Positions 19,459 through 57,100 of a DNA stretch of 64,000 bases are shown one piece after another. A program made the translations under genes and the position numbers. Source of the stretch: Bacilli bacterium (lineage in GTDB: Bacteria; Bacillota_I; Bacilli_A; RFN20; CAG-826); assembly GCA_017635465.1 (NCBI GenBank), contig JAGBLL010000036.1, positions 4,590-68,589 of the forward strand. Direction: 5' to 3'. The notes under the pieces were generated by a model, which worked only from the letters and a program-made list of their open reading frames with translations, was not told where the DNA came from and searched no databases. How positions within the stretch are numbered: position 1 is the first letter of the stretch; each line of letters opens with the position of its first letter.

Positions 19459-19463
19459 TTAGT

Positions 19464-20063: not shown

Positions 20064-20069
20064 TTAAAA

Positions 20070-20095: not shown

Positions 20096-20101
20096 AGAGA
20101 T

Positions 20102-29189: not shown

Positions 29190-29237
29190 TTGTATAATTA
29201 TATTTATCCATTCTTTTACACTGAGGGAGGAAGCAGT

Positions 29238-30379: not shown

Positions 30380-31044
30380 AATATCTAAAAGTACTTCTAT
30401 TTGGCATATTTGCAGGCTTAGCCATTGGTCTAGGATCTTTTGCTTTTACCATTGTTAGTGCTTATTTAACTTCTAAAGAAGGCGTGATGTTTGCATCCAT
30501 GCTATTCTCTATCGGTTTAATCTTAGTTTGTGTATTAGGACTACAACTTTATACCGGTAAAATCGGTGTCGTATTTGATAACCGTGAGAAATTAGCAGAG
30601 AATGCGATTAATTTACCAATCATGTTAGTGGGCAACGCTATTGGCGCTTTCGCTCTTGGTATCTTATGTCACTTTATATTCATGAACGTCCCTGATATTA
30701 CTACACGTATCGAGGCTATTTCAGTAGCAAAGACAGCATCTAAATTTGTATTCTTAGAAGGTATTTTCTGTGGTGCATTAGTGTACATTGCTGTTTATTG
30801 TTATAAAAACTTCCAAAACTGGGGTATGAAGATTATCGGCATTATTGTTGCGGTAACATTATTTGTTTACTGTGGTTTCCAACACTGTATCGCTAATATG
30901 TTCTATTTCGGTATGGCATTCAATTGGAATATCGATATGTTATGGAACCTATTATTAGTTATTCTTACTAATAGCATCGGTGCGCTTTTAGTGAGATGTA
31001 TCGTACATTTAACTGCGATTATCACCGCTAAAAAAGAAAATTAA
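30376..31044 (+). CDS. Formate/nitrite transporter (FNT) family channel, short form, translationally coupled to xpt.
   Basis: Six hydrophobic segments and the FNT hallmark QHCIANMF (H[CS]IANMF). ATGA overlap with xpt. Confidence 0.6.
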   Translation: MKYLKVLLFGIFAGLAIGLGSFAFTIVSAYLTSKEGVMFASMLFSIGLILVCVLGLQLYTGKIGVVFDNREKLAENAINLPIMLVGNAIGAFALGILCHFIFMNVPDITTRIEAISVAKTASKFVFLEGIFCGALVYIAVYCYKNFQNWGMKIIGIIVAVTLFVYCGFQHCIANMFYFGMAFNWNIDMLWNLLLVILTNSIGALLVRCIVHLTAIITAKKEN

Positions 31045-39006: not shown

Positions 39007-39029
39007 AAACAAACAAATGAATAAACAAA

Positions 39030-39062
39030 GTGACTTGCTGGACACTGAAGCCAGCAAGTCAC
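39030..39062 (-). other. Perfect 12-bp stem-loop between the substrate-binding protein gene and the ATPase gene (intra-operon).
   Basis: GTGACTTGCTGG-acactgaag-CCAGCAAGTCAC, read directly. Confidence 0.6.
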
Positions 39063-39078
39063 TTAAAAGTTAATTTAA

Positions 39079-40347
39079 TTAGAACTTTTCGTTCTTGAGA
39101 GAGATACCATCAATCTTAACGTTGAAGTATGGGGCAGAGGCATCAGCGCTTTCGTTGAAGAAGGAAACACCATCTTTTGTCACGATAGCTTCTGTTTCAC
39201 CTTGGAAGTCACCATCGGTATCAGCTTTGTAAGTTGTTAAAGCTTTACCTTCAACAGTGAAGGTGGAGCAATCAAAGACTTTAGCAGCAGCTTTTTCTTT
39301 AACTTCTTTTTCAACAGCGGCGAATTTGGCTTTGTAATCCGCTAATTTGGTAGCGTCTTTGGTGAGGTTGTCCCAGTTGACATTGTATTCAACAGAACCT
39401 GTAGCAACTGTACCTGTCCAGTTAGCATTGACTTCGTTTTCGATGTCTTTGCCTTCGTAAACAGCGTTAACAACGGCTTTGTAGTATGGAGCCCAGTTAA
39501 TACGGGAGTAAGCTAAATATGTTTTTGGGCATTCATCTTTTGTTTCAACGTTGTAGGTAACGTTTGGAACGTTGGCCTTTTCACAGGTACCTGGAGCACC
39601 CATGGAGTCAGCGTGTTGAGAAATGAGGACGGCACCGTCTTTGATTAAAGCATCAGCAGCGGAACCTTCACCTTCTGGATCATACCAAGAACCAGTGAAG
39701 GAAACATCCATTGTTAATTGTTCATTTTTATAACCATAGTCACGTAAGGCATTTCTTGCACCTAAGAACCATGATGTGTAGCCGGACATAACTTCAGCGT
39801 ATGTGTAGGCACCGACATAACCAACTTTTAAAGCTTTTTGAGCATCTAAATCAGCTTTCTTATCTTCGACTAATTTTAAACCAGCAGCATAACCGGCTAA
39901 GAATCTGCCTTGATAAATGGAAGCGAAGGCATTGTGGTAATTCTTTTGGCTGGCTGTTTTGGCGTTTGTACCTGTTGCATGGCAGAATTGAACGTCTTTG
40001 AATTCTTTAGCAGCGTTGAGCATGTGATCTTGGTGGCCAAAGCTATCAGCAAAGATGACTTTGCAGCCTTTTTCCACTAAGTCTTTAGCGGCATCGAAGC
40101 AGGATGTATCTTCGGCAACACCTGTTAATAAGCAGTTCTTTTCGAAGATGACTTTTTTGCCTAAATCTTTAACGGCTTCGTTTAAAGCATTGATGAAGTT
40201 AGCATCGTAAGTGGAACTGCTATCGTGTAAGCAGATTAAACCAATTTTAACGGCTTCACCATCTTTTGCGGCGTTGTCACAACCAGCTAAACCAGCGACA
40301 GAGGCAGCGGCTAAAGCTAATAATGATACTAAACGTACTTTTTTCAT
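39079..40347 (-). CDS. BMP-family (PnrA/Med-like) nucleoside-binding lipoprotein, the substrate-binding component of the ABC transporter.
   Basis: Lipobox LAGC. BMP-family fold and length. Operon with two permeases and the tandem-ABC ATPase. Confidence 0.85.
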   Translation of the reverse strand: MKKVRLVSLLALAAASVAGLAGCDNAAKDGEAVKIGLICLHDSSSTYDANFINALNEAVKDLGKKVIFEKNCLLTGVAEDTSCFDAAKDLVEKGCKVIFADSFGHQDHMLNAAKEFKDVQFCHATGTNAKTASQKNYHNAFASIYQGRFLAGYAAGLKLVEDKKADLDAQKALKVGYVGAYTYAEVMSGYTSWFLGARNALRDYGYKNEQLTMDVSFTGSWYDPEGEGSAADALIKDGAVLISQHADSMGAPGTCEKANVPNVTYNVETKDECPKTYLAYSRINWAPYYKAVVNAVYEGKDIENEVNANWTGTVATGSVEYNVNWDNLTKDATKLADYKAKFAAVEKEVKEKAAAKVFDCSTFTVEGKALTTYKADTDGDFQGETEAIVTKDGVSFFNESADASAPYFNVKIDGISLKNEKF

Positions 40348-40413: not shown

Positions 40414-40530
40414 TACCATAAATCAAAGACGAAACACACGAACGGTTATTTCGCAAACAGATTTGATTCGTAGTGCTACATTATACGGTGCAGCGTAGAG
40501 ACTTCTCTCCAATTAGAGAATTATACGAAG
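40414..40530 (-). promoter_or_regulatory. Candidate ~165-nt regulatory leader (riboswitch or protein-mediated attenuator) of the BMP nucleoside ABC operon.
   Basis: Two perfect TATAAT hexamers on the minus strand (plus 40520-40525 and 40481-40486) upstream of the terminator. There is no room for a promoter between the terminator and the start codon. Confidence 0.35.
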
Positions 40531-40680
40531 TCAACGATTGCTCATTGACGCCATTATTATGGTTCATTAACAGTTAAAAGTAAACACTCAAAAATAAGTT
40601 TTTTTGAACAAAAAGTCGCACGTATTTAATATATTAAAGATATACGCACGACACTATTTGACTGATATGGGAAATTGTAA

Positions 40681-41232
40681 CTAGTAAGCTTCAACAGGAA
40701 CGATTGAAATTACTGGATATTTTTTGAGTACTTCACGACCCTTGAGTGGTGTTAATTCGATGAAGAACAAGACACCAGCCACTATACCGCCACTTCTTTC
40801 AACAAGTTCACATAACGCTCTAGCGGAACCGCCTGTCGCTAATAAATCATCAACTACTAAAACTCTATCACCTGGTTTAATAGAATCTTCACTAATAACA
40901 AGAGTAGCGGTGCCATATTCTAAATTATAAGAAACGCAATAACCTGGTCTTGGTAATTTACCTGGCTTTCTAGCCATGACAACACCTTTCTTAGTTAGTA
41001 AGCCAAGTGTTGGGCCAAATAAGAATCCTCTGGCTTCTGGACAGACAATCTTATCGAATTGAATGCCACTTTTATTTAATTCTTCGACCATCGCATCAAA
41101 GACTAACTGCAAATATTCTGGATCTTCAAATACTGGAACGACATCCTTGAAAATAATGCCTGGTTTAGGGAAACCAGGGACATCCTTAATATGCTTTTCG
41201 GATAATGAAATGACTAATTCTTTTTTGGTCAT
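40681..41232 (-). CDS. apt: Adenine phosphoribosyltransferase.
   Basis: VLVVDDLLATGGSA PRPP motif. 183 aa. Confidence 0.9.
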   Translation of the reverse strand: MTKKELVISLSEKHIKDVPGFPKPGIIFKDVVPVFEDPEYLQLVFDAMVEELNKSGIQFDKIVCPEARGFLFGPTLGLLTKKGVVMARKPGKLPRPGYCVSYNLEYGTATLVISEDSIKPGDRVLVVDDLLATGGSARALCELVERSGGIVAGVLFFIELTPLKGREVLKKYPVISIVPVEAY

Positions 41233-41567: not shown

Positions 41568-43004
41568 ATGTCGGCAAACAAACTTATCTACGATGTAGAA
41601 GACAAGCCAAGTTGGGGCAAAACAATCGTCTTCGCATTACAACAATTATTGGCCATCATGGCCGCAACAATCGCCGTTCCAATGATCGTTGGTAACGGTA
41701 TGAGTACATCAGCTGCTTTATTCGGTGCTGGTGTCGGTACAATCGTTTATTTACTTTTCACAAAATCCAAATCACCAGTCTTCCTTGGTAGTTCATTCGC
41801 TTTCTTAGGAAGTATGTTTGCAGCCTTTGGTGGTGCAGCCGGTTATGGAACATTAGGTTTTCTCGGTCTCATCATTGGTGCAATCTTCGCTGGTCTTGTT
41901 TACGTTGCTTTAGCTTTAGTCTGCAAATTCGCTGGAACAAAATGGATTAGCAAGCTCATGCCTGCAGTCGTCATTGGCCCAACAGTTGCTATTATCGGTT
42001 TAAGCTTATCTGGCAACGCTGTCGCTAACGTCTTCGGTTATGGTGATGTCCCTTCATTTGTCGCTTCCGAAGGCACGATCAACTTACACGTTGGTATGTG
42101 CATCATCGTTGGCCTTGTTACCTTACTCACAGTTATCGCTACATCAGTCTTCAGCAAACCAAAAGGTTTCTTAAGATTAATCCCATTCGTTGTTGGTATC
42201 GTTGCTGGTTACTTAGTGGCTTTAGCATTAACAGGTATCGGTTATGGCTTAGACAATGATGCCTTAAAGATCATCGACTTCAACATCTTCAAAAATGCTG
42301 GTTGGGATAAATTCATTGGTGGCTGGTGCCCAGAATTCACATTCATCAAAGCATTTGAAACATTCAAAGATTCCAATAACTTCGCTAACTTTGGTCCATA
42401 TTTAGGTACCTTAGCGGTTGCTTATATCCCAGTTGCCTTCGTTGTCTTCGCTGAACACATCGCAGACCACAAGAACTTAAGTACAATTATTGATAGAGAT
42501 TTACTTGAAGAACCAGGCTTACACAGAACACTTCTTGGTGATGGTGTTGGCTCAATGGCCGGTGCTTTCTTCGGCGGTGCATGTAACACAACATACGGTG
42601 AATCCGTTGGCTGTGTCGCTATCTCTGGTAACGCTTCCATTAGAACAATCTGGACAACCGCTGTCATGGCAATCGTCCTCTCATTCTTCTTACCATTCTC
42701 CACATTACTCGCTTCTATCCCAACCCCAGTTATGGGTGGTGTCTGTATTGCCTTATACGGCTTCATCGCTGTCTCTGGCTTAAAGATGATTCAAAATGTT
42801 GACCTTGGTGATAACAGAAACTTATTCGTTGTTTCCGTCATCTTAATTGCTGGTGTCGGTGGCTTCGCGATGAAGTTTGTCTTCCCAAATGCTTCCTACA
42901 TTCAATTAACAGAAGTTGCTTGTGCTTTAATCCTTGGTATAATTGTTAACGTGATGGTTGGCTTTGCCAGAAAAGATAAAGAACAACCTAACGAAGAAAA
43001 ATAA
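41568..43004 (+). CDS. pyrP: Uracil/xanthine permease (NCS2/NAT family). Likely the uracil permease, given upp downstream.
   Basis: 12-14 TM NCS2 layout. AAGGAG RBS before ATG at 41568. Confidence 0.8.
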   Translation: MSANKLIYDVEDKPSWGKTIVFALQQLLAIMAATIAVPMIVGNGMSTSAALFGAGVGTIVYLLFTKSKSPVFLGSSFAFLGSMFAAFGGAAGYGTLGFLGLIIGAIFAGLVYVALALVCKFAGTKWISKLMPAVVIGPTVAIIGLSLSGNAVANVFGYGDVPSFVASEGTINLHVGMCIIVGLVTLLTVIATSVFSKPKGFLRLIPFVVGIVAGYLVALALTGIGYGLDNDALKIIDFNIFKNAGWDKFIGGWCPEFTFIKAFETFKDSNNFANFGPYLGTLAVAYIPVAFVVFAEHIADHKNLSTIIDRDLLEEPGLHRTLLGDGVGSMAGAFFGGACNTTYGESVGCVAISGNASIRTIWTTAVMAIVLSFFLPFSTLLASIPTPVMGGVCIALYGFIAVSGLKMIQNVDLGDNRNLFVVSVILIAGVGGFAMKFVFPNASYIQLTEVACALILGIIVNVMVGFARKDKEQPNEEK

Positions 43005-43019
43005 GTTGAGGAAGAAAAG

Positions 43020-43694
43020 ATGGCTTTTGAAAATTATCCAACAGTCCATATTCTTGACCATCCATTGATCAAGCACAAGATTACAAAGCTTAGAGACAAA
43101 ACCACAAAAACTAGCGAATTCAAAATGCTCGTGAAAGAGATATCCGTTTTGGAAGGATATGAAGCATTAAGAAACGCTGAAACACAAATGGTGGAAATTG
43201 AAACACCAATTGAAAAAACAACACAACCAGTTGTTAAGAGAAAATCTCTCTGCTTCGTCCCAATTCTCCGTGCGGGATTAGGAATGGCGGATGGCATGCT
43301 TGATCTACTTCCAGGCTGTACATGTGGCCACATCGGTTTATACCGTGATGAAGTCACTAAAAAACCAGTGGAATATTACTGCAAATTACCTGCAGATATT
43401 TCCGAAAAAGATGTCTATTTAGTCGACCCAATGTTGGCGACAGGTGGTTCCGCTATTGATGCGGTTGCCCAACTCATCAAACATGGTGCTAAAAAGATTA
43501 CCTTCATTTGTATCATCGCTGCTCCAGAAGGCGTGGAAGCATTTGTGAAAAAATATCCAAATATTCCACTCTACATTGGTGCCCTTGACCGCTGCTTAAA
43601 TGAAAACGCCTACATTTGCCCAGGTTTGGGTGACTGTGGTGACCGTACATTTGGCACAACAAATGGTACAACAGAAGATAGACCAATTATCTAA
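43020..43694 (+). CDS. upp: Uracil phosphoribosyltransferase.
   Basis: YLVDPMLATGGSA PRPP motif and the C-terminal YICPGLGDCGDRTFGT motif. Confidence 0.9.
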   Translation: MAFENYPTVHILDHPLIKHKITKLRDKTTKTSEFKMLVKEISVLEGYEALRNAETQMVEIETPIEKTTQPVVKRKSLCFVPILRAGLGMADGMLDLLPGCTCGHIGLYRDEVTKKPVEYYCKLPADISEKDVYLVDPMLATGGSAIDAVAQLIKHGAKKITFICIIAAPEGVEAFVKKYPNIPLYIGALDRCLNENAYICPGLGDCGDRTFGTTNGTTEDRPII

Positions 43695-43746
43695 TCAACT
43701 TATTGATTAGTAGAAATTCCTTTCAGTTGAAAGAGGGAAAGAAGAC

Positions 43747-44676
43747 ATGACAAATAAAGAACAAGTACTAGTATTCTCTTTAACGTCCTGTGAAGAATTA
43801 GCTTACAGGGTGTGTGAAGAGCTCGGTGTGGAAAAAGCACCATCTATCTGTAGAAGATTCGCAGATAATGAAATTTTTACCAGACCAAACGTTGACGTAA
43901 GAGGTAAAGATTGTATTGTTATTCATTCAACCTGTAACCCAGTTAACGATAGAGTGATGGAATTATTAATCTTCATTGATGCTTTGAAGCGTGGTGAAGC
44001 AAAATCCATTACTGCGATCGTTCCATATTTCGGATATGTGAGACAAGATAGAACAATTGATTTCGGCGATCCAATTAGTGCGAAACTCGTCGCTAATTGC
44101 TTAAGAGAAGCTGGATGCAACAGAGTTGTATCTGTTGATTACCATAGTGGTTCAATGCAACCATTCTTCGAAAATATGGAAGCGGTGGAATTATATTCTT
44201 CATCAGTGTTTGCCGATTATTATCGTAAACGCTTAAGAACATTAAAAGTCAAACTCGAGGACGTCGTCATAGTTTCTCCAGATAAAGGCGGTCTCGAAAG
44301 AGCAAGACATTTAAGCAAAGACTTAGGTGACTTACCAATCGCGGTGTTAAATAAATACCGTCCTGAACCAAATAAGGCCGTTATTACTAACATCAAAGGC
44401 GAACCAGTTGAAGATAAGTACTGTTTGATGATTGATGATATCATCGATACTGGTGGCACAATTATTGCTGCGAGTAAAGAACTTCTTAAAAATGAAGCTA
44501 AAGGTATCTTAATCTGCGCTTGCCATGGTATCTTTTCCAAGAACGCTCTCGCTAAATTATATAGATGTGGTATCTTAGACATCGCTATTAGTGATTCTAT
44601 TCCACAAGAAGAAGATGTGGTGTCAATTGTTTCATTAGCACCAATCATTGCTAAGTACATTAACGAGAACTTCTAA
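43747..44676 (+). CDS. prs: Ribose-phosphate pyrophosphokinase.
   Basis: VPYFGYVRQDR and DDIIDTGGT motifs. 309 aa. Confidence 0.9.
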   Translation: MTNKEQVLVFSLTSCEELAYRVCEELGVEKAPSICRRFADNEIFTRPNVDVRGKDCIVIHSTCNPVNDRVMELLIFIDALKRGEAKSITAIVPYFGYVRQDRTIDFGDPISAKLVANCLREAGCNRVVSVDYHSGSMQPFFENMEAVELYSSSVFADYYRKRLRTLKVKLEDVVIVSPDKGGLERARHLSKDLGDLPIAVLNKYRPEPNKAVITNIKGEPVEDKYCLMIDDIIDTGGTIIAASKELLKNEAKGILICACHGIFSKNALAKLYRCGILDIAISDSIPQEEDVVSIVSLAPIIAKYINENF

Positions 44677-44694
44677 TAACAATTAAAGATATAT

Positions 44695-44728
44695 AAGACC
44701 GGAAAAATGAAAATCCGGTCTTTTTTCA
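44695..44728 (+). terminator. Intrinsic terminator after prs.
   Basis: AGACCGGA-aaaatgaaaa-TCCGGTCT hairpin followed by TTTTTTCATT. Confidence 0.75.
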
Positions 44729-44790
44729 TTGCAAGTAAGATAACTTTTTGATACTTTTTTGTTTAGAAAGCAAGAAAGGTGATTTGCAAA

Positions 44791-45879
44791 ATGAAAAAGC
44801 ACGCATTAGTGTTAATCGTCTTTACTGTCCTTTCAACGAGTTGCCAAAAGAATAGCATTATTCCTAGTAGCGAAGAAAAGGCAGATGCTGATAAGGGAAA
44901 AATTGTTTTACACTCAGACGTCCAAAGGGTCTTTTTATCTGGACCCCTTGAGAATGTGAATCTTTACGCTAGAGGAGCGGAAGAATTATCAAGGCCTTTA
45001 ACCCCAACATTTACGTGGGAAGAAGCAAAAGCGCCTTACACGGTATATCTTTCCGATAACTACAACTACTCTAACGCACTGACTTACTCCGTAGATGACG
45101 CTAAAATATCGTTTAGCAATCTAAAGATTAATACCAAATATTATTATCAAGTAATGTCTGGTGATGAAGTTATCAAGCAAGATACCTTCGAAACGTCATC
45201 ACAATTGGTGAGAAATTTATACATTTCCGGAGTAACAAACGCTCGAGACTTAGGTGGCTACACAACGAAGGAAGGTGTAGTTAAGCAAGGCGTCTTATTC
45301 CGTATGGGAAGACTTAATAAAAACGATGTTGAAGAAGTGGATGTGAGAATCACTTCTAAAGGCATCGACGCTATGATTAATGAATTAAAGGTGAAAACCG
45401 AAATTGATTTAAGAATGGTGGACAATAATGAAGTTGGTGGCTTAACTGAAGGAACAAGCGTTATTGGTAATAATGTTAAATATTATCAATGCCCAATGGA
45501 TTACACTGAAACAATGGATAAAGGGGATAATGATAAATCCTTAAGAAAAGTATTTACTATCTTAGGTGATAAGAAAAATTATCCAGCATTCTTCCATTGC
45601 TCAATCGGTACAGATCGTACTGGTTATGTCGCCTGGTTAATTAATAGCATCCTTGGTGTTAGTGAAGATGATTTGTGGAGAGATTATCTCTTCTCAAACT
45701 TCGGTAATATCGGTGGCTTACGCAATAAGAGTTATATCGAAAACGGTTATGTTAAAATGATTAAAGAAACTGAAGGAAATTCTTTAAAAGAAAAGACAAT
45801 TAACTTCTTACTTAAAAAAGGTGTAAAACAGCAAGACATCAATGTCGTCCAAGAAATGATGCTCAAAAACGAAGATTAA
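44791..45879 (+). CDS. Lipoprotein with a C-terminal protein-tyrosine-phosphatase-like domain (Y_phosphatase3-type CX5R).
   Basis: Lipobox LSTSC. Active-site signature HCSIGTDRTG (C-X5-R-T/S-G). Confidence 0.6.
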   Translation: MKKHALVLIVFTVLSTSCQKNSIIPSSEEKADADKGKIVLHSDVQRVFLSGPLENVNLYARGAEELSRPLTPTFTWEEAKAPYTVYLSDNYNYSNALTYSVDDAKISFSNLKINTKYYYQVMSGDEVIKQDTFETSSQLVRNLYISGVTNARDLGGYTTKEGVVKQGVLFRMGRLNKNDVEEVDVRITSKGIDAMINELKVKTEIDLRMVDNNEVGGLTEGTSVIGNNVKYYQCPMDYTETMDKGDNDKSLRKVFTILGDKKNYPAFFHCSIGTDRTGYVAWLINSILGVSEDDLWRDYLFSNFGNIGGLRNKSYIENGYVKMIKETEGNSLKEKTINFLLKKGVKQQDINVVQEMMLKNED

Positions 45880-46158
45880 TGGCTGATCTAGTCCCAAATC
45901 TCTAACCAGATAAGGGACTTTTTTATTGGCTTCCAACACGAAAAATAGTCAAAAGTGTTTACTGTAGTATACAAAAATGCCGATATTTCAGTTCGAAAGC
46001 ATATATTCAACCTCACAAAAAATACTTTATACTACATCTATTTCTGTCACTTTTTCTTTACGTTAATTTTATTAAAAAATTATTAACATTCACGCGTGCA
46101 TAATCTATACTTAAATAGTGTTTTTTCTTCGTGGAAAAGACTTAAAGGAGATACCCCT

Positions 46159-47580
46159 ATGAAATACGATGTCGTGATTGTTGGAGCGGGCCCAAGTGGA
46201 TATTTTTGTGCCTACGAATTAGTCAACAAAAACCCAAATTTAAAGGTCCTCCTTATAGATAAGGGTCTTTCCATCGAAAAAAGACATTGTCCAGTTTTAG
46301 AACACAAATTGACTAAATGTCCAAGAAATATAAAAGGCTATCAAGAATGCTTCCCAGCTTGTTCCATCACTAATGGTTTTGGTGGGGCTGGTGCTTATTC
46401 TGATGGTAAATTTAACATTACCTCCGAATTTGGTGGTTGGTTACAAGATTATATTGATAATGATGAGCTCATGAAACTCATCCATTATGTCGATGAAATC
46501 AATCTTAAATATGGCGCTACACCTGTGATTACTGATCCATATACCAAAGAAGTAAGAGAAATTGAAAAGAAGGCCATGTCTGTAGGCTTAAAACTTTTAC
46601 ATAGCAAAGTCAGACACTTAGGTACTGAAGAAAACTTAAAAATCTTAACAAGAATATATTTAGATTTAGAAAAGAAGATTGATGCGAGGTTCTCCACTGC
46701 AGTTAAAGATGTAATAGTGGAAAACGGTGTCGTTAAAGGTGTCGTGACTGATAAAGATGAAAGAATCGATGCTGATTATGTCTTATTAGCGGTTGGCCGT
46801 GAAGGTAGCCAATGGTTAACAAATTTATTTGAAAAATTTGGTGTGGAAATGACACAAAACCAAGTTGATATCGGTGTGCGTGTTGAATGTCCAAATATGG
46901 TCATGGAAGAAATCAACCAACACTTATATGAAGGTAAGTTCCTTTTCAAAGCGTCCACTGGCAGCACTGTTAGAACATTCTGCTCTAACCCAGGTGGCCA
47001 TGTTGTTATGGAAAACTACCAAGGTGTCGTTAATGTTAATGGTCATTCCTATAGCGATCCAAAATTATCCAGTGAAAACACTAACTTTGCTTTGTTAGTG
47101 ACTCATCACTTTGAAGAACCATTTAAGAAACCAAATGAATACGCTTTAAAGGTTTCTTCTTTAGCAAACCAATTAGCGTGTGGCTCGGTTTTAGTCCAAC
47201 GCTTTGGTGACATCTTACAAGGTAGACGTAGTACAGTTAAACGTATTAACGAAGGATTTGTAAGACCAACATTAAAAGAAGCTGTTCCAGGTGACTTAGC
47301 CTTATGCTTACCACAAAAAACCATGCAAGCGATTATCGAGATGATTAAAGTTTTAGATCACATCACTCCAGGTATCGCTACTGAACATACATTACTATAT
47401 GGCGTGGAAGCGAAATATTATTCTGCTCACCCACAAATTGATAACAAACTTGAAGTTAAAGATATTAAAAACCTCTATGTTGGTGGTGATGGTGCGGGTC
47501 TCACCCGTGGCTTAGCCCAAGCAGGAGCGTGTGGCGTTTATGTTGCTAGAAACATCCTAGAGAAGAAGGGTGTTAAATAG
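46159..47580 (+). CDS. FAD-dependent dehydrogenase of the COG2509 type, with a 4-Cys cluster.
   Basis: Rossmann VVIVGAGPSGY. Cys cluster HCPVLEHKLTKCPRN...ECFPAC. C-terminal GGDGAGLTRG. AAAGGAG RBS before ATG at 46159. Confidence 0.7.
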   Translation: MKYDVVIVGAGPSGYFCAYELVNKNPNLKVLLIDKGLSIEKRHCPVLEHKLTKCPRNIKGYQECFPACSITNGFGGAGAYSDGKFNITSEFGGWLQDYIDNDELMKLIHYVDEINLKYGATPVITDPYTKEVREIEKKAMSVGLKLLHSKVRHLGTEENLKILTRIYLDLEKKIDARFSTAVKDVIVENGVVKGVVTDKDERIDADYVLLAVGREGSQWLTNLFEKFGVEMTQNQVDIGVRVECPNMVMEEINQHLYEGKFLFKASTGSTVRTFCSNPGGHVVMENYQGVVNVNGHSYSDPKLSSENTNFALLVTHHFEEPFKKPNEYALKVSSLANQLACGSVLVQRFGDILQGRRSTVKRINEGFVRPTLKEAVPGDLALCLPQKTMQAIIEMIKVLDHITPGIATEHTLLYGVEAKYYSAHPQIDNKLEVKDIKNLYVGGDGAGLTRGLAQAGACGVYVARNILEKKGVK

Positions 47581-47596
47581 AAGGAGAAAAAAACTT

Positions 47597-48787
47597 ATGA
47601 GATGTGTTGGTGTGACATCTAGGGGCATCAGACTCCCCGTATTGAAAACTGGTGACGACTTAAGAAAGATTGTTGTCGAATCAGTTTTAAAAGCCTCTGA
47701 AAATGAAGGATTTAAATTTCATGATCGCGATGTTGTCGCAATCACCGAAAGTATCGTCGCCCGTTGCCAAGGCAATTACGCCTCTGTCGACAATATCGCT
47801 GACGATGTGAGAAAGAAAACCGGTGGCGATGAAGTAGCGGTCATTTTTCCTATTTTAAGTAGAAATAGATTCGCTATTCTCTTAAAAGGTATCGCTAGAG
47901 GTGTGAAGAAAGTTTACTTAATGCTTTCTTACCCAAGTGATGAAGTTGGTAATGCTTTAATTACCGCTGATCAAGTATACGAAGCTGGTATTAACCCATA
48001 CAGTGACGTCTTAACATTAGAAAAATATCGTGAATTATTTGGCTATAGAGTCCATGAATTCACTGGTGTTGACTATGTCGACTACTATAAAAAGTTAATT
48101 GAAGAACAAGGTGCAGAAGCTGTGATTATTTTTGCTAACCGCGCTGAAGCAATCTTAAATTACACAAAGAAAATCTTAACATGTGATATTCACACAAGAT
48201 TTGCTACAAAACGTTTATTAAAAGATAAAGGTGCTGAATTAGTTTTAGCCCTTGATGATATTTTAACCGCACCAGTTAATGGTTCTGGTTATAACGAAAA
48301 ATATGGTTTATTAGGTACAAATAAAGCCACTGAAGAAACTGTTAAATTATTCCCAAGAGATGGTCAATCTCTCGTTGAAGGTGTACAAGCTGATTTATTA
48401 GAAAAAACCGGCAAACACGTGGAAGTAATGGTGTATGGTGATGGTGCTTTTAAAGATCCACAAGGTAAGATTTGGGAATTAGCAGACCCAGTTGTTTCTC
48501 CATTCCACACAGTGGGCTTAAAAGGAACACCTAATGAATTAAAACTCAAATATTTAGCGGATAATGCCTATAAAGGCTTAAAAGGTAAAGAACTCGCTGA
48601 CGCGATTAAAGAAGATATCAAAGCTAAAGAAAAAGACCTCGTTGGTAAGATGGCTAGCGAAGGCACAACTCCAAGACAAATCACTGACTTATTAGGTTCT
48701 CTATGTGATTTAACAAGTGGTTCTGGTGATAAAGGTACACCAGTTGTCTTAATTCAAGGATATTTTGACAATTATGCCGACGAGTAA
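47597..48787 (+). CDS. CofE-like (F420-0:gamma-glutamyl ligase family) protein with large insertions. 397 aa.
   Basis: IRLPVLKTGDDLRKIV and HDRDVVAITESIVARCQG align to the CofE N-terminal motifs. YGDGAFKDPQGK aligns to the CofE nucleotide-binding region. Overlaps the upstream gene. Confidence 0.55.
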   Translation: MRCVGVTSRGIRLPVLKTGDDLRKIVVESVLKASENEGFKFHDRDVVAITESIVARCQGNYASVDNIADDVRKKTGGDEVAVIFPILSRNRFAILLKGIARGVKKVYLMLSYPSDEVGNALITADQVYEAGINPYSDVLTLEKYRELFGYRVHEFTGVDYVDYYKKLIEEQGAEAVIIFANRAEAILNYTKKILTCDIHTRFATKRLLKDKGAELVLALDDILTAPVNGSGYNEKYGLLGTNKATEETVKLFPRDGQSLVEGVQADLLEKTGKHVEVMVYGDGAFKDPQGKIWELADPVVSPFHTVGLKGTPNELKLKYLADNAYKGLKGKELADAIKEDIKAKEKDLVGKMASEGTTPRQITDLLGSLCDLTSGSGDKGTPVVLIQGYFDNYADE

Positions 48788-50270
48788 GAAGAAAATAGCA
48801 TTTGATAATAAAAAATATCTGAAAATCCAACGTCAGGAAATTTTAAAACGCATTAAATCCTTCGGTGGAAAACTTTACCTTGAATTCGGTGGTAAGTTAT
48901 TTGATGACTTCCACGCGAGTAGAGTTCTTCCAGGTTTTGAACCAGATTCAAAGCTCCAAATGTTACTCACATTAAAGGATGATGCCGAAATCGTTATGGC
49001 GGTCAACGCTAACGACATCAAAACAAATAAAGTTAGAAATGACTTAGGTATTACATATGAATCCGAAGTCGAAAGATTAATCGATGCTTATCAAGCAGCG
49101 GGTTTATATGTTAGTAGTGTGGTCTTCTGTTTCTATGAAGATAGCCCAGTATTAAAACAATTTGCCACGAAACTTAAAAAGAATGGCATTAAGGTTTATA
49201 AACACTACACAATCGCTGGTTATCCACATAACTTAGTCTCTGTTTTTGGTAGTGATGGCTTCGAAAAGAACGAATATGTTGAAACCACAAAACCATTAAT
49301 CGTTGTGACCGCGCCAGGACCAGGTTCAGGCAAGATGGCTGTCTGTTTAAGTCAGTTATATCATGATATGAATCGTGGTATTAAATCTGGTTACGCTAAA
49401 TATGAAACATTCCCAGTGTGGAATCTTCCACTTAGTCATCCAGTTAACTTAGCTTATGAAGCCGCAACAGTTGACTTAGCTGATGTTAATATGATTGACC
49501 CATACCATTTAGCGGCCTATGGCTTAACAACCACTAACTACAATAGAGATATTGAAACATTCCCATTATTAAAGACCATATTTGAAAAGATTTATGGTAC
49601 TTCCCCATATAAATCACCAACAGATATGGGCGTTAACATGGTTGGTTTCGCTATCGTCAACGATAAAGCGGCATGTGAGGCAAGTAAGCAAGAAATCATT
49701 CGTCGTTATTACCAAGCTAAAAAGAATGTCTACTTAGGTAAATTCGATGATGACACAATTGTCAAAGAAGAATCATTAATGAACGCAGTTGGTGTCACTA
49801 TTGCTGATCGACCAACAGTCGCGGCTTGCTTAGATAAAGCTAAAAAGTGCAAAGAAAGAGTGGTAGCCATTGAATTACCAAATGGCAAAATCATTACTGG
49901 TAAACGTTCAGTTCTTTTAGGCGCTCCAGCGGCAATGCTCCTTAATACACTTAAGTATTTAGGTAAGATTGACGATAGTATTCATTTAATTTCACCACAC
50001 GTGGTTACCCCAATGGCAGATCTTAAAACTGGTCCACTTAAGAAAGAAAACCCACGTATTAGAGCGGAAGAAATCTTGATTGCCTTAGCTATTCAAGCAA
50101 GTAGTAACCCACTCGCGGAATTAGCCTTAAAACAATTAGGCAAATTAAAAGGTTCTGAAGCGCATTGTTCGTGTTTACTTTCAGATGCTGATTTAAGAAC
50201 ATTAACCGCTTTAGGTATCAATGTCACTGAAGAACCTGTCGGGTACGCGCACAAACTATATTTTAAATAA
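48765..50270 (+). CDS. UPF0371/DUF1846-family protein, ~500 aa.
   Basis: Size and N-terminal region recalled as UPF0371 of Firmicutes. Overlaps the CofE-like stop. Confidence 0.5.
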   Translation: MTIMPTSKKKIAFDNKKYLKIQRQEILKRIKSFGGKLYLEFGGKLFDDFHASRVLPGFEPDSKLQMLLTLKDDAEIVMAVNANDIKTNKVRNDLGITYESEVERLIDAYQAAGLYVSSVVFCFYEDSPVLKQFATKLKKNGIKVYKHYTIAGYPHNLVSVFGSDGFEKNEYVETTKPLIVVTAPGPGSGKMAVCLSQLYHDMNRGIKSGYAKYETFPVWNLPLSHPVNLAYEAATVDLADVNMIDPYHLAAYGLTTTNYNRDIETFPLLKTIFEKIYGTSPYKSPTDMGVNMVGFAIVNDKAACEASKQEIIRRYYQAKKNVYLGKFDDDTIVKEESLMNAVGVTIADRPTVAACLDKAKKCKERVVAIELPNGKIITGKRSVLLGAPAAMLLNTLKYLGKIDDSIHLISPHVVTPMADLKTGPLKKENPRIRAEEILIALAIQASSNPLAELALKQLGKLKGSEAHCSCLLSDADLRTLTALGINVTEEPVGYAHKLYFK

Positions 50271-50305
50271 TTTATTGATTATATCTTAATTTATTTATTA
50301 AAGAG

Positions 50306-50336
50306 GAAAGAGCAAATCGCTCTTTTCTTTTTTCTA
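50306..50336 (+). terminator. Intrinsic terminator after the FAD-dehydrogenase/CofE-like/UPF0371 operon.
   Basis: AAAGAGC-aaat-CGCTCTTT hairpin followed by TCTTTTTTCT. Confidence 0.7.
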
Positions 50337-50451
50337 AATAACAAAATAGTCATATTTTTTATATATAAGGTAGATAATAATAGTATCGTAATCGTTTGTA
50401 TTCGTTAGAAACAAACAACATATTTTTTCATAATAAGAAAGGAATTTTTTC

Positions 50452-53400
50452 ATGAAGAAAAAGATTTTGCTCCCTGTTCTTCTTATGGGTATGGCTCTAC
50501 CTTTTGCCATTGGTGGCACATATAGTGGAGTTAATGCGGAATTTATTGGGGATTATTCCGCACAAGCCGCTTACACAAAAGCCGGTTCTGCTTTGAACGC
50601 TGAAATTTGTGATGAAGGCTTCGTCCTATTAAAGAACAAAGACAATTTCTTACCAATGCAAGCAGAAGGCGCGAAGATTTCTGTCGTTGGTAAGAGTTCA
50701 GTCAACCTCGTTAGAGGTGGTGGCGGTTCCGGTAGTGGCCGTGTTAACGGTGAAACCGCAATCGATTTACAACAATCGTTAGAAAAAGTTGGTTTCTCTT
50801 TAAACAAGAAATGCACAGATTTCTATAAGAGTGACTCTAAATCCGGTCCAGGCAGATCTAACGGCAATGATAACTGGAAGGGTAATTCTCAAGTGCAAAT
50901 TGGTGAAACACCAATGGCGATGCTTGAAAAAGAAAGTGGCTTAATTGATAGCTTCCAAGAATATGGTGACGCCGCAATTATGACCATCTCCCGTGAAGGT
51001 AGTGAAGGTTGTGACGTTAAAGCAATCGACGCTCGTGACTTTGACCCATCCAGTGGTAGACTCTCTGGTGTTACCGCTGGTGATGTAACAACAAAACACG
51101 CCTTACAATTATCCGATAACGAACAAGCCTTATTCGATTTAATTTGCGAAAAGTTTGAACACGTTATCATCCTTATCAACTCTGGTAATATCTTCCAATG
51201 TGACCAATTTGAAAATAATGATAAAGTTTCCGCGGTCATTTGGATGGGTAACCCAGGCGCGGTTGGTACAGGCGCAATCGGTCGTATTTTAACTGGTGAA
51301 GTCAATCCATCAGGTCGTACAGTCGATACATGGGCTCGTAATTTCAAAAATGACCCAACATATCAAAACTTCTCCGATAACTCTCAAACAAACGATAAGA
51401 TTATCGAAGTAACAGTTAATAACAAAAAGAAACAAACATATGCTTCTCAAGACACAATGTTCGCAGAAGATGGCGCTCCAATGCTCAGCTATGGTACTGA
51501 TAAAGCTTACAAAGATCACTCTTCTCCAAGATGGGTCAATGAAGAAGCAAAAGTGGTACAAGGTGGCTTAAATGGTGTTAAACCAGCTTCCTATGTCGCT
51601 TATGAAGAAGGCGTCTATGTTGACTATAGATACTATGAAACCCGTTATGCTGAATTAGCTAAAAAAGATAAAAAAGCCGCGGATGAATGGTATAAAGGTG
51701 ATGAAGGTGTCATCTATCCATTCGGTTATGGTTTAAGCTATACAACATTTAAACAAGAAATCGTTTCATCTAACGTTAAAGGTAAAACGCTTAAAAATGG
51801 TAATACCAACGTTGAAGTGAAAGTCAAAGTTAAAAATACTGGTGGCACCGCTGGTAAGGAAGTTGTCCAACTTTATTGGAAAGCTCCATATAAGCAAGGT
51901 GGTATTGAAAAAGCCAATAATGTCTTATGTGCTTTTGATAAGACAAGAATGTTGGATCCAGGTGAAGAACAAGTTCTTACTTTAACATTTAACACACAAG
52001 ATGTCGCTAACTATGACTTCGCTGATAAGAACAATAATGGCTTCTGTGGCTATGAATTAGATGGTGGTACATACTACATCTCATTAAACAAAAACGCTCA
52101 TGAAGAATTAGGTTCTATCAAGTTCTCTGTTGCTAAAGATGGCATCAAGTTTGAAACAGATCGCTATACAGGTCATGAAGTTAAGAACAGATTTACTGAC
52201 AGAGGCTTCTATAGCTGCTTACCAGGTGAAAATGATATCGGTTTTGAACAATTCTCACGTGCTGATGGTTTAGCAACAAAACCAACACACCCAACAATTG
52301 AAGATAGAAAAGTCAAAGTGGGTAGCCGTTATGAAGAATTCTTAACACACGAATTCACATTAAATGACTTAGAAGATGGTAAAGGTGAATATCTCCCATT
52401 AGAAATGCTCAAAACAAAAGAAGACATTGAAGCTTTAGGCTGGACACAAAGAGCAACAACCGCTAGTAAAGCTGAAAGTATCCAATTCAAAGATTTGGTC
52501 GGTCTTGATATGGATGATCCATTATGGGAACAAGCCATGGATCAAATGACATATACAGAATTATTAAGCTTCTCCTATGGTGGTGGTAACCACAATCCTG
52601 CTATCAGCAGAATGGACAAACCAGGCACAGGCGATAGCGATGGTCCTTCCCAATTCAAATACATCTGGTGGGCAGGCGCACCAATCGTGGCCGCGACATA
52701 CAACGTCGAATTAGCCAAGAGACAAGGCGAAATGGTCGGTATTGAAGCTCATATTTCTGGTACATATGGTTGGGCTGGTCCAGCTGTCAACTTACACCGT
52801 TCTCCATTCGGTGGCCGTAACTTCGAATACTACGCTGCTGATCCATTCTTAATGGGCCGTATGGCAGGTAGAGTCGTTGCTGGCGCAACTGATAAAGGTT
52901 TATATTGCTTCTTCAAGCACTTTGCGGTTAACGATCAAGAAAAGAACCGTGAAGGTACATCAGTTTTCTTAACTGAACAAGCTTTACGTGAAATTTATCT
53001 CAAACCATTCCAAATGGTTGTTCAAGAAGGTAAATCCATGGCCTTAATGTCATCCTATAACCGTTTAGGTAACATGGAAACCGCTGCTAGCTATCCATTA
53101 TTAACAGAAGTTCTCCGTGATGAATGGGGCTTCAAAGGTCACATCATTTCCGATATGACTCATAGCGGTAACTCCTCCGTTAACTATAAGTGCTATGAAT
53201 GCATCAATAACCGTATCTTAGCGGGTTGCAACCAACAATTAGATAGTAACGGTTTCAGAAGTGATATCACATGTAAGTGGGATGCTACCGCATTTGAAGG
53301 TAAAGGCGCTCCAGTATACACAAATAAAGCTGGTCAAACAGTTGAATGCTACACATGGTGGTACATGCTTAGAAAGAACGTTAAAGAATCAATGTGGACA

Positions 53401-53838
53401 TGCGCTAACTGTGGTGTTATGTCAAAGACATTCATCAAGAATGCTAACTTAACATTTAATGGTGTTGAACGCGAATATCTCGAAGTCAAAGTTGGTGAAG
53501 AAATTAACATCAAAGTTGATATGCCAGATGAATTAGCGGGTGCAACATTATCCATCGACCCAGTTACTCCATTACCAGAAGGTTTAGTCTTCGAAGACAA
53601 TACCATCAAAGGTAAATTAACTGATGGATGTAACGTCTTTATCCACGTCTTAGCGGAACTCAATGGTACAAAGACTGGTTCAAGTATCCAATTATTTGCA
53701 CCAAAAGTTGCTGCTCAAGCTCCTGCAAAAGGTGGTTGTGGTGGTGCTATTGAAGCCACATTAGTGGGTGTTGGCTTACTCGCTCTTGCGACCGCAATCG
53801 TCCTCATTGTTGATAAAAAAAGAAGAGTTAACGCCTAG
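50452..53838 (+). CDS. Secreted, C-terminally membrane-anchored family-3 glycoside hydrolase (paralog 1) with reversed domain order: GH3 C-domain, Fn3-like, GH3 catalytic barrel.
   Basis: Signal peptide. PGAVGTGAIGRILTGEVNPSGRTVDTWARNF is the GH3_C motif. YPFGYGLSYTTF...VKNTGGTAGKEVVQLY is the Fn3-like domain. KHFAVNDQE...SYNRLGN...GFKGHIISD carries the catalytic-barrel nucleophile region. C-terminal KGGCGG + TM + KKRR. Confidence 0.8.
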   Translation: MKKKILLPVLLMGMALPFAIGGTYSGVNAEFIGDYSAQAAYTKAGSALNAEICDEGFVLLKNKDNFLPMQAEGAKISVVGKSSVNLVRGGGGSGSGRVNGETAIDLQQSLEKVGFSLNKKCTDFYKSDSKSGPGRSNGNDNWKGNSQVQIGETPMAMLEKESGLIDSFQEYGDAAIMTISREGSEGCDVKAIDARDFDPSSGRLSGVTAGDVTTKHALQLSDNEQALFDLICEKFEHVIILINSGNIFQCDQFENNDKVSAVIWMGNPGAVGTGAIGRILTGEVNPSGRTVDTWARNFKNDPTYQNFSDNSQTNDKIIEVTVNNKKKQTYASQDTMFAEDGAPMLSYGTDKAYKDHSSPRWVNEEAKVVQGGLNGVKPASYVAYEEGVYVDYRYYETRYAELAKKDKKAADEWYKGDEGVIYPFGYGLSYTTFKQEIVSSNVKGKTLKNGNTNVEVKVKVKNTGGTAGKEVVQLYWKAPYKQGGIEKANNVLCAFDKTRMLDPGEEQVLTLTFNTQDVANYDFADKNNNGFCGYELDGGTYYISLNKNAHEELGSIKFSVAKDGIKFETDRYTGHEVKNRFTDRGFYSCLPGENDIGFEQFSRADGLATKPTHPTIEDRKVKVGSRYEEFLTHEFTLNDLEDGKGEYLPLEMLKTKEDIEALGWTQRATTASKAESIQFKDLVGLDMDDPLWEQAMDQMTYTELLSFSYGGGNHNPAISRMDKPGTGDSDGPSQFKYIWWAGAPIVAATYNVELAKRQGEMVGIEAHISGTYGWAGPAVNLHRSPFGGRNFEYYAADPFLMGRMAGRVVAGATDKGLYCFFKHFAVNDQEKNREGTSVFLTEQALREIYLKPFQMVVQEGKSMALMSSYNRLGNMETAASYPLLTEVLRDEWGFKGHIISDMTHSGNSSVNYKCYECINNRILAGCNQQLDSNGFRSDITCKWDATAFEGKGAPVYTNKAGQTVECYTWWYMLRKNVKESMWTCANCGVMSKTFIKNANLTFNGVEREYLEVKVGEEINIKVDMPDELAGATLSIDPVTPLPEGLVFEDNTIKGKLTDGCNVFIHVLAELNGTKTGSSIQLFAPKVAAQAPAKGGCGGAIEATLVGVGLLALATAIVLIVDKKRRVNA

Positions 53839-54113: not shown

Positions 54114-57100
54114 ATGAAGAAAGTATTGATTCCAGTTTTTCTTGCCGCGATGGCTTTACCATTATGTTTAAACAAAGGTGCTAACGCTGCGAACGCTGAA
54201 TTTATCGGTGAATTCACAGATAGAACCTCCTACATTAAACATGGTTCTGCAGTCAACGACCAATTAGCAGATGAAGGTTTCGTCCTATTAAAGAATGAAG
54301 GCAACTTCTTACCAATGGCCGCTGAAGGTAAAAAAGTTACTCTCGCTGGTAAGAGCTCAACAAAATTAGCCGGTGGTGGTGCTGGTTCAGGTGCTGGTTC
54401 CACATCTCAAGGTGTTACCGGTATTGACATGAAGAAGTCCTTAACAGACGTTGGCTTCGAAGTTAACCAAAAATTCATTGATTTCTACAACAGCGACACC
54501 AAATCAGGTCCAGGTAGAACAAACGGTAACGATGGTTGGAAAGGTAACTCCCAAGTTCAAATCGGTGAAACCCCAATTTCCATGTATGAAAAAGAATCTG
54601 GTTTATTGGAAACACTCGATGAATACAAAGATGCCGCTATCCAAGTTATCACCCGTGAAGGTTCCGAAGGTTGTGACGTTAAAGCAATTGACGCTCGTGA
54701 CTTCGACCCAGCTAGTGGCAAAACTGCTCCATCCGGTGTTGATGTTAATGAAGTTTCAGACAGACACGCTCTTGAATTATCCAAGAATGAAGAAGCTTTA
54801 TTACAAGAATTAGAAAAACACACAGACAACGTTATTATCGTTATCAACTCATCCAATATCTTCGAATGCGCTAAACTCGAAAACGATCCAAAAGTTAAAG
54901 CCATTCTCTGGATTGGTAACCCAGGTGACCGTGGTGCGGGTGCCGTCGGTAGAATTCTCTCCGGTCAAGTCAACCCATCTGGTCGTACAGTTGATACATG
55001 GGCTCGTGATTTCACACAAGACCCAACATATCAAAACTTCTCCGATAACGCTCAAACAAATGAAAACATCATTGAAGTTACCGTTAACGGTAAGAAGAAA
55101 AACACAAATGCTGCTCAAGACACAATGTTCGCAGCAGATGGTTCCCCAATGCTCAGCTTTGGTACAGATAAAGCTTATAAAGACCACAATGCTCCAAGAT
55201 GGTTAAACGCTGATGCTAAAGTTGTCCAAGGTGGTATCAATGGTGTTAAACCAGCCGCTTACGTTTCATACGAAGAAGGTATCTATGTTGACTACCGTTA
55301 CTATGAAACAAAATATGCCGATATGGCTGCTAAAGATAAGAAAGCCGCTGATGCTTGGTATAACGGTCAAGACGAAAAGAAGGGTGGCGTTATCTACCCA
55401 TTCGGTTATGGCTTAAGCTATACAACATTCGAACAAAAGATCGTTAAAGCCAACATTAAGAAAGGTGGCAAGATCAATGAAAAGAACGAAGTTATCGCTG
55501 TGACTGTCGAAGTTAAGAACACTGGTAAAGTCGCTGGTAAACAAGCCGTTCAACTTTATTGGAAAGCCCCATACAAAGCTGGTGAAATTGAAAAAGCTGA
55601 TCACGTCTTATGTGCATTTGGTAAATCACCAATGCTCGAACCAGGTGAAAAAGCAAACGTCCACTTATCATTCTATTTACAAGATGTTGCTAACTACGAC
55701 TTCACAGACGCAAATAAGAATGGCTTCAAGGGTTACGAATTAGATGCAGGTAAATATTCCTTATTCTTAGGTAAATCCGCCCACGAAGCATACGAAAACT
55801 TCAACTTCTCCGTTGAAAAGAACATCAAATACGAAAACGATCGTTTCTCCGGCCACAAAGTTGAAAACAGATTCACTGACAATGGCTTCTATAGCTCAAT
55901 GCCAGGTGAAAAAGATATCGAATTCACACAAATGAGCCGTGCTGATTTCGATAAGACATTCCCAACTCACCCAACCTTCGAAGATAGAAAAGTCAAAGAA
56001 GGTAGCAGATTTGAAGAATTCTTAACAACTGAATTCTCACTCGCTGATTTCGAAGCTGGCAATAACGAATACGTTCCTGCCGCTGCTCGTAAAGATGCAA
56101 GCGTTGCTGCTAACTGGAAACAAGGTTCTAAAGACACATCCCACAAGATCATTGACTTAAAGGATACCGAATTAGATGATCCAAGATGGGAAGAACTCGT
56201 CAACCAAATCTCTTGGGCTGATATGCTCAAAGTTGTCGAAACAAATAGAATGTCCTCACAAGCTATCTCCAGCGTTGGTAAAGCTGGCTTCTCTGAAGGT
56301 GACGGTCCACAAAAATTCAACATTATGTGGTGGGTCTCTTCTCCAATTATCGCCGCTACATTCAACCAAGACTTAGCTCATAAACAAGGTGAATGCGTTG
56401 GTATGGAATCTCAAATCAGTGGTAAATCTGGTTGGTGGGGTCCAGCTGTTAATACACACCGTTCTCCATTCGGTGGTAGAAACTTCGAATACTATGCCGC
56501 TGATCCATTCTTAATGGGCCGTATGGCTGCTCAAGTCGTCGGTGCCGCTACAGATAGAGGCGTCTACGCATACTTCAAACACTTTGCTGTTAACGATCAA
56601 GAAAAGAACCGTGAATCCGGTATCTCATTCTTAACAGAACAAGCATTACGTGAAATCTACTTAAAGTCCTTCCAAATGGTCTTTGAAGAAGGTAAATCCA
56701 TTGGTGTCATGGGTTCCTATAACCGTATGGGCTTAATGGAAACAGCCGCTAACTACAACTTATTAACAGAAGTTCTCCGTGGTGAATGGGGCTTCAAGGG
56801 TTCTGTCTTATCCGATATGACCCACAGTGGTAATGGTTCCGTTAACTTCAACTGCTACGAATGTGTCACAAACCGTGTCTTATCCGGTTGTAACGCTCAA
56901 TTAGACTCTGGTGGTTTCTCTGGCGCTTCCCAAGCAAAATGGGATAATACACAAAATGCTCCATTATATACCGCTAAAGATGGTTCTAAACAAATCTCTT
57001 ACTCTTACTGGTATGCTGTGAGACAATGCACAAAAGAACATATGTTCATGGCTTCACGTTGTACAAAGACACATACCGATGCTGGTATTAAGATGATTAA

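Follow-up and report, generated by a model that had tools for sequence, protein, structure and literature searches.

The 64,000-nucleotide stretch analysed here (hereafter, the window) comes from contig JAGBLL010000036.1 of a Bacilli bacterium. Three same-direction open reading frames (ORFs) fill positions 46159-50270 of this window and are called genes A, B, and C. They encode a COG2509-type FAD-dependent oxidoreductase, a long-form protein of the CofE superfamily, and a member of the DUF1846/UPF0371 family, respectively. We consider it reasonably likely that these genes form a lineage-specific operon of nucleotide metabolism, dedicated to salvage or interconversion, rather than an F420-type pathway or another pathway of cofactor tailoring. 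The window has a G+C content of 36% and stems from an uncultured bacterium of gut or rumen, its nearest proteins being those of metagenome-assembled genomes (MAGs) labelled Erysipelotrichaceae or Bacilli.

The first line of evidence comes from gene C (48774-50270, + strand). An earlier note, made from the sequence of the window, presented its product as a protein of unknown function, a view that is superseded now that a cytidine triphosphate (CTP) synthase activity has been published for DUF1846 (bioRxiv 10.1101/2024.09.24.614635). PF08903 matches the protein at 550 bits over positions 1-332 of 333, and PF20921 at 177 bits over positions 2-153 of 153. The NF010184 equivalog, a model still named “hypothetical protein”, is also passed (741 bits for a cut-off of 631). 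Alignment with Spd_0310 of Streptococcus pneumoniae (PDB 7f00) gives 593 bits (E 3.4e-177) and 55% identity over 494 gap-free residues, with the GPGSGK loop kept. Spd_0310 is synthetically lethal with pyrG, cytidine rescues this lethality, and the purified protein alone converts uridine triphosphate (UTP) into CTP using ammonia and not glutamine, hence the name PyrJ given by its authors in a 2024 preprint (bioRxiv 10.1101/2024.09.24.614635). The PyrJ reaction consumes UTP, ATP, and free ammonia to produce CTP, and the protein has no glutaminase domain (bioRxiv 10.1101/2024.09.24.614635). In Clostridioides difficile, the DUF1846 gene is essential (PMC12157513). On the strength of these alignments, gene C is a PyrJ orthologue, predicted to encode an ammonia-dependent CTP synthase.

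The operon lies in a nucleotide-salvage neighbourhood. Upstream, on the + strand, are found an NCS2 uracil-permease-like gene (41568-43004, uracil permease being the best match within NCS2), upp (43020-43694, equivalog score of 267 bits), and prs (43747-44676, 305 bits). Permease, upp, and prs directly precede gene A in two related loci, L001 and L005 (homologous loci are numbered with the prefix L), where no phosphatase gene intervenes. Further upstream of the operon, apt occupies positions 40681-41232, and a purine riboswitch aptamer is detected on the - strand at 40451-40548 with 47.9 bits, above the gathering threshold; it is the only purine riboswitch found. Behind it lies an operon for a BMP lipoprotein/ABC nucleoside importer (34459-40347, - strand). 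Finally, a block on the + strand (28209-31044) contains a glutaminase-less GMP synthase gene followed by hpt, xpt, and a gene for an FNT-family channel. This GMP synthase (28209-29189, + strand) corresponds to the ATP-pyrophosphatase half of the enzyme (448 bits with TIGR00884 guaA_Cterm), with no glutamine amidotransferase (GATase) domain, and is called GuaA-C hereafter. The window guaA-C gene sits 18 kb from gene B.

The genomic surroundings of gene B in other organisms provide the second line of evidence. The family was sampled at 81 non-redundant species-level loci, each taken with at most 10 kb of flanking sequence per side, using tblastn and ORF clustering. Further look-ups added loci beyond this set, including L087 and L088. 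Counts of downstream genes refer to the ~70 loci having enough downstream sequence. The commonest neighbour of gene B is the ~330-aa ATP-pyrophosphatase half of GMP synthase, without a GATase domain. Such a glutaminase-less guaA stands directly 3' of gene B, on the same strand and 11-65 nt away, in 19 of the ~70 loci, and it is nearby in two more. These GuaA-C orthologues are 62-75% identical to that of the window. In L017 (2007-3299) and in L043 from Beduini massiliensis (11166-12497), the GuaA that follows gene B carries an N-terminal stub of ~100 aa corresponding to positions 1-76 of the 190 of the GATase profile, which looks like a glutaminase domain caught mid-decay. In the 81 species-level loci, purA is adjacent to gene B or near it four times and xpt once. 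Moreover, pyrJ adjoins gene B in L001, L005, and L034, and among the further look-ups pyrJ follows gene B in L087 and udk follows it in L088. Overall, gene B is located beside an enzyme of nucleotide synthesis or salvage in roughly one third of the loci. Its conservation is also in the range of that of GuaA, with ~70% identity between Erysipelotrichaceae and Clostridia. Thus, because gene B elsewhere shares operons with enzymes that catalyse amination or stand at branch points in nucleotide synthesis, it may well belong to nucleotide metabolism. Literature searches for a link between CofE-like proteins and GMP synthase, or for an ammonia-dependent GMP synthase, returned nothing relevant.

These elements can be assembled into a scheme. 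Uracil would be imported and converted into UMP by Upp, with phosphoribosyl pyrophosphate (PRPP) provided by Prs. After conversion of UMP into UTP, PyrJ would produce CTP, thereby completing uracil salvage, as the context suggests. Judging from its neighbours, the gene B product would perform or assist a nucleotide-related step, probably dependent on a nucleoside triphosphate (NTP), and would not catalyse F420 gamma-glutamylation. It would probably bind an NTP or a phosphorylated ligand, at a step linked to GuaA-C, PurA, and PyrJ. In Erysipelotrichales, the adjacency of their genes suggests that the gene A product would work with it. Several points weigh against this scheme. About 60% of the gene B loci have no adjoining nucleotide gene, the 19 guaA cases may stem from a few ancestral arrangements and hence not be independent, and it is gene neighbourhood alone that ties gene B to nucleotide metabolism. 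In addition, the PyrJ activity comes from one preprint dealing with the pneumococcal protein, and Spd_0310 had earlier been described as a hemin-binding tetramer (PMC9238395).

Any link to F420 would come from gene B (47597-48787, + strand, 396 aa), CofE being the F420-0:gamma-glutamyl ligase, which uses GTP to attach L-glutamate to F420-0. The earlier note assigned gene B to the CofE family and found it ~150 aa longer than canonical CofE, a length difference that is real, canonical CofE being 245-255 aa long, with members of 237-271 aa. The family assignment holds with Pfam, PF01996 (F420_ligase) matching at 189 bits with profile positions 1-218 spread over residues 10-388. In contrast, it fails with the NCBIfam CofE equivalogs, whose cut-offs are far from being reached (47.5 bits for 180.65 with TIGR01916, 43.4 for 274 with NF009809, and 17.6 for 304 with NF009810); these alignments reach only the N-terminal ~60 residues of the protein. 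At the structural level, the AlphaFold2 model of gene B (predicted local distance difference test, pLDDT, 93.1; predicted template modelling score, pTM, 0.90) retrieves CofE from Archaeoglobus fulgidus as its top Foldseek match, with an E-value of 1.5e-8, a probability of 1.0, and 12-14% identity. The best PDB matches are 2phn, 2g9i, and 7uld (E 1.5e-8 to 6.5e-7, probability 1.0). Profile-profile alignment of the gene B family with 23 canonical CofE sequences by hhalign gives Prob 95.7 for the N half and 94.3 for the C half, and a profile built from long-family sequences matches CofE structures of the PDB with an E-value of 0.05 at best.

Residue comparison indicates how far the two families have diverged. 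Canonical CofE sequences have 58 invariant positions, 44 of which can be aligned to the long family; 13 of these 44 are retained and 31 are changed. Four residues, D109, D150, T151, and E208, which are the Mn2+ ligands of CofE, are invariant in all 23 canonical sequences. In the hhalign mapping, D109 becomes L239, T151 becomes P288, and E208 becomes S376, D150 being kept as D287. Further changes are R157 to E294, R154 to K or G, R49 to N60, and E47 to Q58. An intact CofE site is therefore not what the comparison gives: the fold is kept but D109, T151, and E208 are substituted. The replacing residues L239, S376, E294, N60, and Q58 are conserved in 90-100% of the long-family members. Since the substitutes are themselves conserved, the active site appears re-tooled rather than decayed, and the alignment points to an exchange of most CofE metal and phosphate ligands for other conserved residues.

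Gene B carries two insertions. The first one, of ~120 aa, is an alpha/beta segment (residues ~84-235) and the second one, of ~36 aa, is helical (residues ~310-345). The alpha/beta insertion contains invariant polar residues, SRNR 88-91, D115, E116, N119, H153, T156, Y160, Y164, H199, and R201, which would form a conserved polar pocket of its own. Modelled alone (pLDDT 88), this insertion has no significant match in the PDB. Its weak matches are headed by the structure of a universal stress protein with bound dAMP (3qtb, E 0.15), behind which come eIF2B and proteins resembling ribose-1,5-bisphosphate isomerase; eIF2B beta/delta is also matched, with an E-value of 2e-3, in the search with the whole gene B model. 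The models are compatible with a generic alpha/beta domain of nucleotide or sugar-phosphate type, which is not decisive.

With equivalog scores far under the cut-offs and only 13 of the 44 invariant positions retained, gene B is predicted not to be CofE in the functional sense. In gut Firmicutes, it stands for a separate long branch of the CofE fold family, one that is highly conserved. The genomic context agrees with the remark of the earlier note that nothing else in the window suggests F420 biosynthesis. Indeed, no F420 biosynthesis gene was seen in the 64-kb window by inspection of ORF N-termini and partial Pfam scans, and none of cofC, cofD, cofG, cofH, fbiA, and fbiC was seen among the 133 immediate neighbours of gene B in ~70 loci. 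More generally, no F420, flavin, or pterin biosynthesis gene was seen beside gene B in any locus. Rosetta-stone fusions were also considered and set aside, since the longer proteins that, in the library of 50% representatives, match the C-half of gene B are chimeras and uninformative. The chimeric entries (P0237, P0240, P0196, P0208, and P0154) join a gene B-like C-half to a reverse transcriptase, an Ig-like domain, a CitMHS transporter, or ADH_N, and look like assembly or gene-calling artefacts. The plasmid collection contained one unannotated match, from Subdoligranulum, and canonical CofE was absent from these results.

Gene A (46159-47580, + strand, 473 aa) encodes a flavoprotein. Its product matches PF21688 (FAD-depend_C) at 52 bits for a cut-off of 27 and PF07992 (Pyr_redox_2) at 56 bits, as well as GIDA. 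The N-terminal VIVGAGPSG corresponds to the GxGxxG dinucleotide-binding motif. The protein is assigned to the HI0933/amine-oxidase-like flavoprotein superfamily, and its homologues are named NAD(P)/FAD-dependent oxidoreductases in databases. The closest solved structure is that of VP0956 (3nlc, E 4e-24). The description of this protein as a four-cysteine FAD oxidoreductase was right: C44, C54, C64, and C68 are invariant across 10 homologues having 75-85% identity. A search of the literature on COG2509 found nothing relevant. The role of gene A is probably tied to that of gene B.

The three genes had been described as a tight operon, which is borne out by the ORFs, a promoter-like site, and terminators. 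The promoter-like site, TTAACA-17-TATACT at 46083-46111 (+ strand), is a consensus match only, located 48 nt 5' of gene A. With 10 matches out of 12, it has the top sigma-70-type score in the 43000-52000 region, and its -35 and -10 elements, together with the leader of gene A, are kept in L001 and L005. Each gene is preceded by a ribosome-binding site (RBS), AAAGGAG before the ATG of gene A. The proposed overlap of all three genes at their stop and start codons is true of genes B and C, where the ATG at 48774 precedes the gene B stop at 48787 in an overlap of 14 nt that is identical in L001. It is not true of genes A and B, between which there are 16 nt, with the RBS AAGGAG inside this spacer. 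The start of gene B is set at the conserved ATG 47597 because homologues begin with MRC or MRT; a GTG at 47570, with an 11-nt overlap with gene A, was rejected as it has no support from homologues.

As for the terminators said to bracket the trio, both hairpins are real but the first one terminates prs. Downstream, an intrinsic terminator on the + strand ends the operon with a hairpin at 50300-50332 followed by UUCUUUUUU (hairpin plus T-run, 50300-50336); the hairpin has a 14-bp stem and a free energy (dG) of -16.2 kcal/mol (z -4.6). Upstream, the prs terminator hairpin is at 44695-44722 (+ strand, dG -12.8, z -4.6). Between prs and the operon lies a gene for a Y_phosphatase3 lipoprotein (44779-45879, + strand), with its own terminator-like hairpin at 45890-45919 followed by UUUUUU (hairpin plus T-run, 45890-45925, + strand; dG -11.6, z -2.0). 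Since the first hairpin ends prs and the phosphatase gene with its own hairpin intervenes, the hairpin at 45890-45919 and the promoter-like site at 46083-46111 constitute the true 5' boundary of the operon. The phosphatase gene is missing at the corresponding position in L001 and L005, and a member of its family directly precedes the stand-alone gene A homologue of L089. An Rfam search found no riboswitch or leader RNA 5' of the operon, and the window contains no match to a PurR-type paired PurBox (CGAAC-N10-25-GTTCG).

The long CofE-like family is much more widespread than the trio. It has 1584 representatives at 50% clustering (E <=1e-3), and a scan with one genome per species finds the gene in at least 595 species. 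In the best 80 species, identity with gene B is 68-80%, and these species are labelled Lachnospiraceae, Oscillospiraceae, Acutalibacteraceae, Christensenellaceae, Erysipelotrichaceae, Negativicutes, and a few Bacteroidales-labelled MAGs. The full trio occurs in the window, in L001-L005, and, with different flanks, in L087, gene B being 77-80% identical in these loci. Genes A and B occur without gene C in L006-L008, L016, L085, and L090, and with a uridine kinase gene in L088 (7001-10234; udk, TIGR00235, 233 bits), whereas L089 has gene A without gene B. In L034 (7857-11769), a Bacteroidales-labelled contig that may be mis-binned, the order is purD-folD-gene B-DUF1846. In ~70 of the 81 species loci, from Lachnospiraceae, Oscillospiraceae, Acutalibacteraceae, Christensenellaceae, and Negativicutes, gene B has neither gene A nor gene C within 10 kb. 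The A+B pair is confined to 9-10 loci of Erysipelotrichaceae/Bacilli MAGs. When DUF1846 and COG2509 neighbourhoods were viewed from their own side, the homologue lists filled up at >=75% identity, so that only close relatives were sampled. As, seen from gene B, the trio is found only in close relatives and ~70 of 81 loci lack the partners of gene B, the trio is a clade-specific arrangement, and the conserved core in Erysipelotrichales is A+B, not A+B+C. Thus, co-conservation of the three genes, on which the idea of a candidate uncharacterised modification pathway relied, is largely lost. What stands of that idea is that gene B is an uncharacterised member of the CofE superfamily unrelated to F420; a single conserved three-gene pathway is not supported.

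The varying membership of these loci would also fit another explanation, in which genes A, B, and C would have unrelated functions and would have come together in one clade by chance or through shared regulation, gene C encoding a hemin-binding or iron-homeostasis protein. Gene A is alone in L089, accompanied by gene B in L085 and L090 and by gene B and udk in L088, and gene B is mostly alone; SPD_0310 was, moreover, reported as a hemin-binding tetramer (PMC9238395). However, the synthetic lethality with pyrG, the rescue by cytidine, and the formation of CTP in vitro (bioRxiv 10.1101/2024.09.24.614635) speak for a CTP synthase, the pyrimidine and purine context recurs across lineages, and the start-stop overlap of genes B and C is kept in L001. 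We regard this explanation as unlikely.

A bolder possibility, drawn by analogy, is that the long CofE-fold protein would be an unrecognised partner of the glutaminase-less amidoligases PyrJ and GuaA-C. Its part would be to bring in or activate the nitrogen donor, or to link the reaction to GTP, and the COG2509 flavoprotein would feed it in Erysipelotrichales. The position of gene B directly 5' of a glutaminase-less guaA in 19 loci, with a spacing that is often near-fused, and its overlap with pyrJ in the window are consistent with such a role. So are the decayed GATase stub (1-76 of 190), all that two of the GuaA proteins following gene B keep of this domain, the use of ammonia only by PyrJ in vitro (bioRxiv 10.1101/2024.09.24.614635), and the membership of gene A in the HI0933/amine-oxidase-like superfamily. 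On the other hand, gene B resembles none of the known glutaminases in fold or motif, and it shows no evident catalytic nucleophile. The neighbours purA, udk, and xpt need no ammonia, PyrJ works alone, and the rumen and gut are rich in ammonia, so that a donor subunit may be unnecessary. In the window itself, guaA-C is distant from gene B by 18 kb. All this makes the partnership quite improbable.

The least probable explanation, a sequential pathway in which the three proteins would act in turn on one small molecule or cofactor, with gamma-glutamylation by gene B in the manner of CofE, a redox step by gene A, and a further step by gene C, can appeal to the single transcription unit with translationally coupled genes B and C, to the trio recurring between different flanks (L001/L005 on the one hand, L087 on the other), to the CofE fold of gene B, and to the co-purification of CofE with flavins (PMC10861534), gene A being a flavoprotein, but it is very doubtful given the defined stand-alone activity of the gene C family (bioRxiv 10.1101/2024.09.24.614635), the missing trio in ~70 of 81 gene B species, the loss of most invariant CofE ligands, and the lack of F420, flavin, and pterin biosynthesis genes beside gene B.

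Some other features of the window may be mentioned. Directly 3' of the operon, 50452-53838 and 54114-57461 (+ strand) encode paralogous secreted proteins of ~1120 aa belonging to glycoside hydrolase family 3. Their domain order is permuted, the C-domain standing before the N-domain, and the protein encoded at 50452-53838 has a hydrophobic C-terminal segment. At 11081-22194, ORF N-termini read by eye reveal a gene set of chromosomal-origin type: the - strand has dnaA, dnaN, recF, gyrB, and gyrA, and opposite them the + strand has rnpA, yidC, jag, and mnmE. A signal recognition particle (SRP) RNA is located at 5865-5950 (- strand).

The preferred reading, that of a nucleotide-metabolism operon, has several consequences. 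PyrJ itself had been described in a preprint, and the pyrimidine-salvage context constitutes an independent genomic argument for assigning the role of alternative CTP synthase, PyrJ, to DUF1846. As for the long CofE-fold family, it varies a known fold, is uncharacterised, and has been mis-annotated. A widespread annotation is corrected here: the gene labelled “coenzyme F420-0:L-glutamate ligase” in hundreds of Firmicutes species from gut and rumen is almost certainly unrelated to F420. For this large orphan family, conserved like GMP synthase, the gene neighbourhoods give a lead towards the formation of GMP, AMP, and CTP, especially in the presence of a glutaminase-less GuaA. If the partnership with amidoligases were true, it would offer a new view of the entry of nitrogen into nucleotides in ammonia-rich anaerobic habitats, and a fourth, structurally unrelated solution to the supply of amide nitrogen.

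The operon can finally be compared with known systems. VP0956 of Vibrio parahaemolyticus (3nlc), a COG2509 “FAD-dependent protein”, aligns through its residues 205-538 with gene A, which also has the PF21688 match. Gene A is shorter, its four-cysteine segment (44-68) lies outside the aligned part, and both proteins are uncharacterised. With regard to nitrogen supply, archaea have a two-subunit GMP synthase made up of a separate GATase and an ATP-pyrophosphatase, and PyrG follows a GATase-plus-synthetase logic. In a similar manner, a synthetase-only GuaA in 19 genomes and a likewise synthetase-only CTP synthase in the window come directly after one and the same possible partner gene. However, gene B has the CofE fold whereas the archaeal GATase subunit is a class-I glutaminase, so that the resemblance is an analogy only. 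CofE and FbiB's N-terminal domain (PF01996; 2phn, 7uld) share with gene B the core fold, the Pfam family, a few scaffold residues, D150, and N112. Nevertheless, CofE is a single domain of ~250 aa or is fused to the FbiB nitroreductase, whereas gene B has 396 aa with two insertions and a different setting, that of gut Firmicutes with nucleotide enzymes as neighbours and no F420 genes nearby. A further correspondence is that of gene C with PyrJ (Spd_0310; 7f00, 3bh1), both DUF1846 domains being present end to end along with the GPGSGK loop. In contrast to pneumococcal pyrJ, gene C closes an operon of three genes, and its start overlaps the stop codon of gene B.

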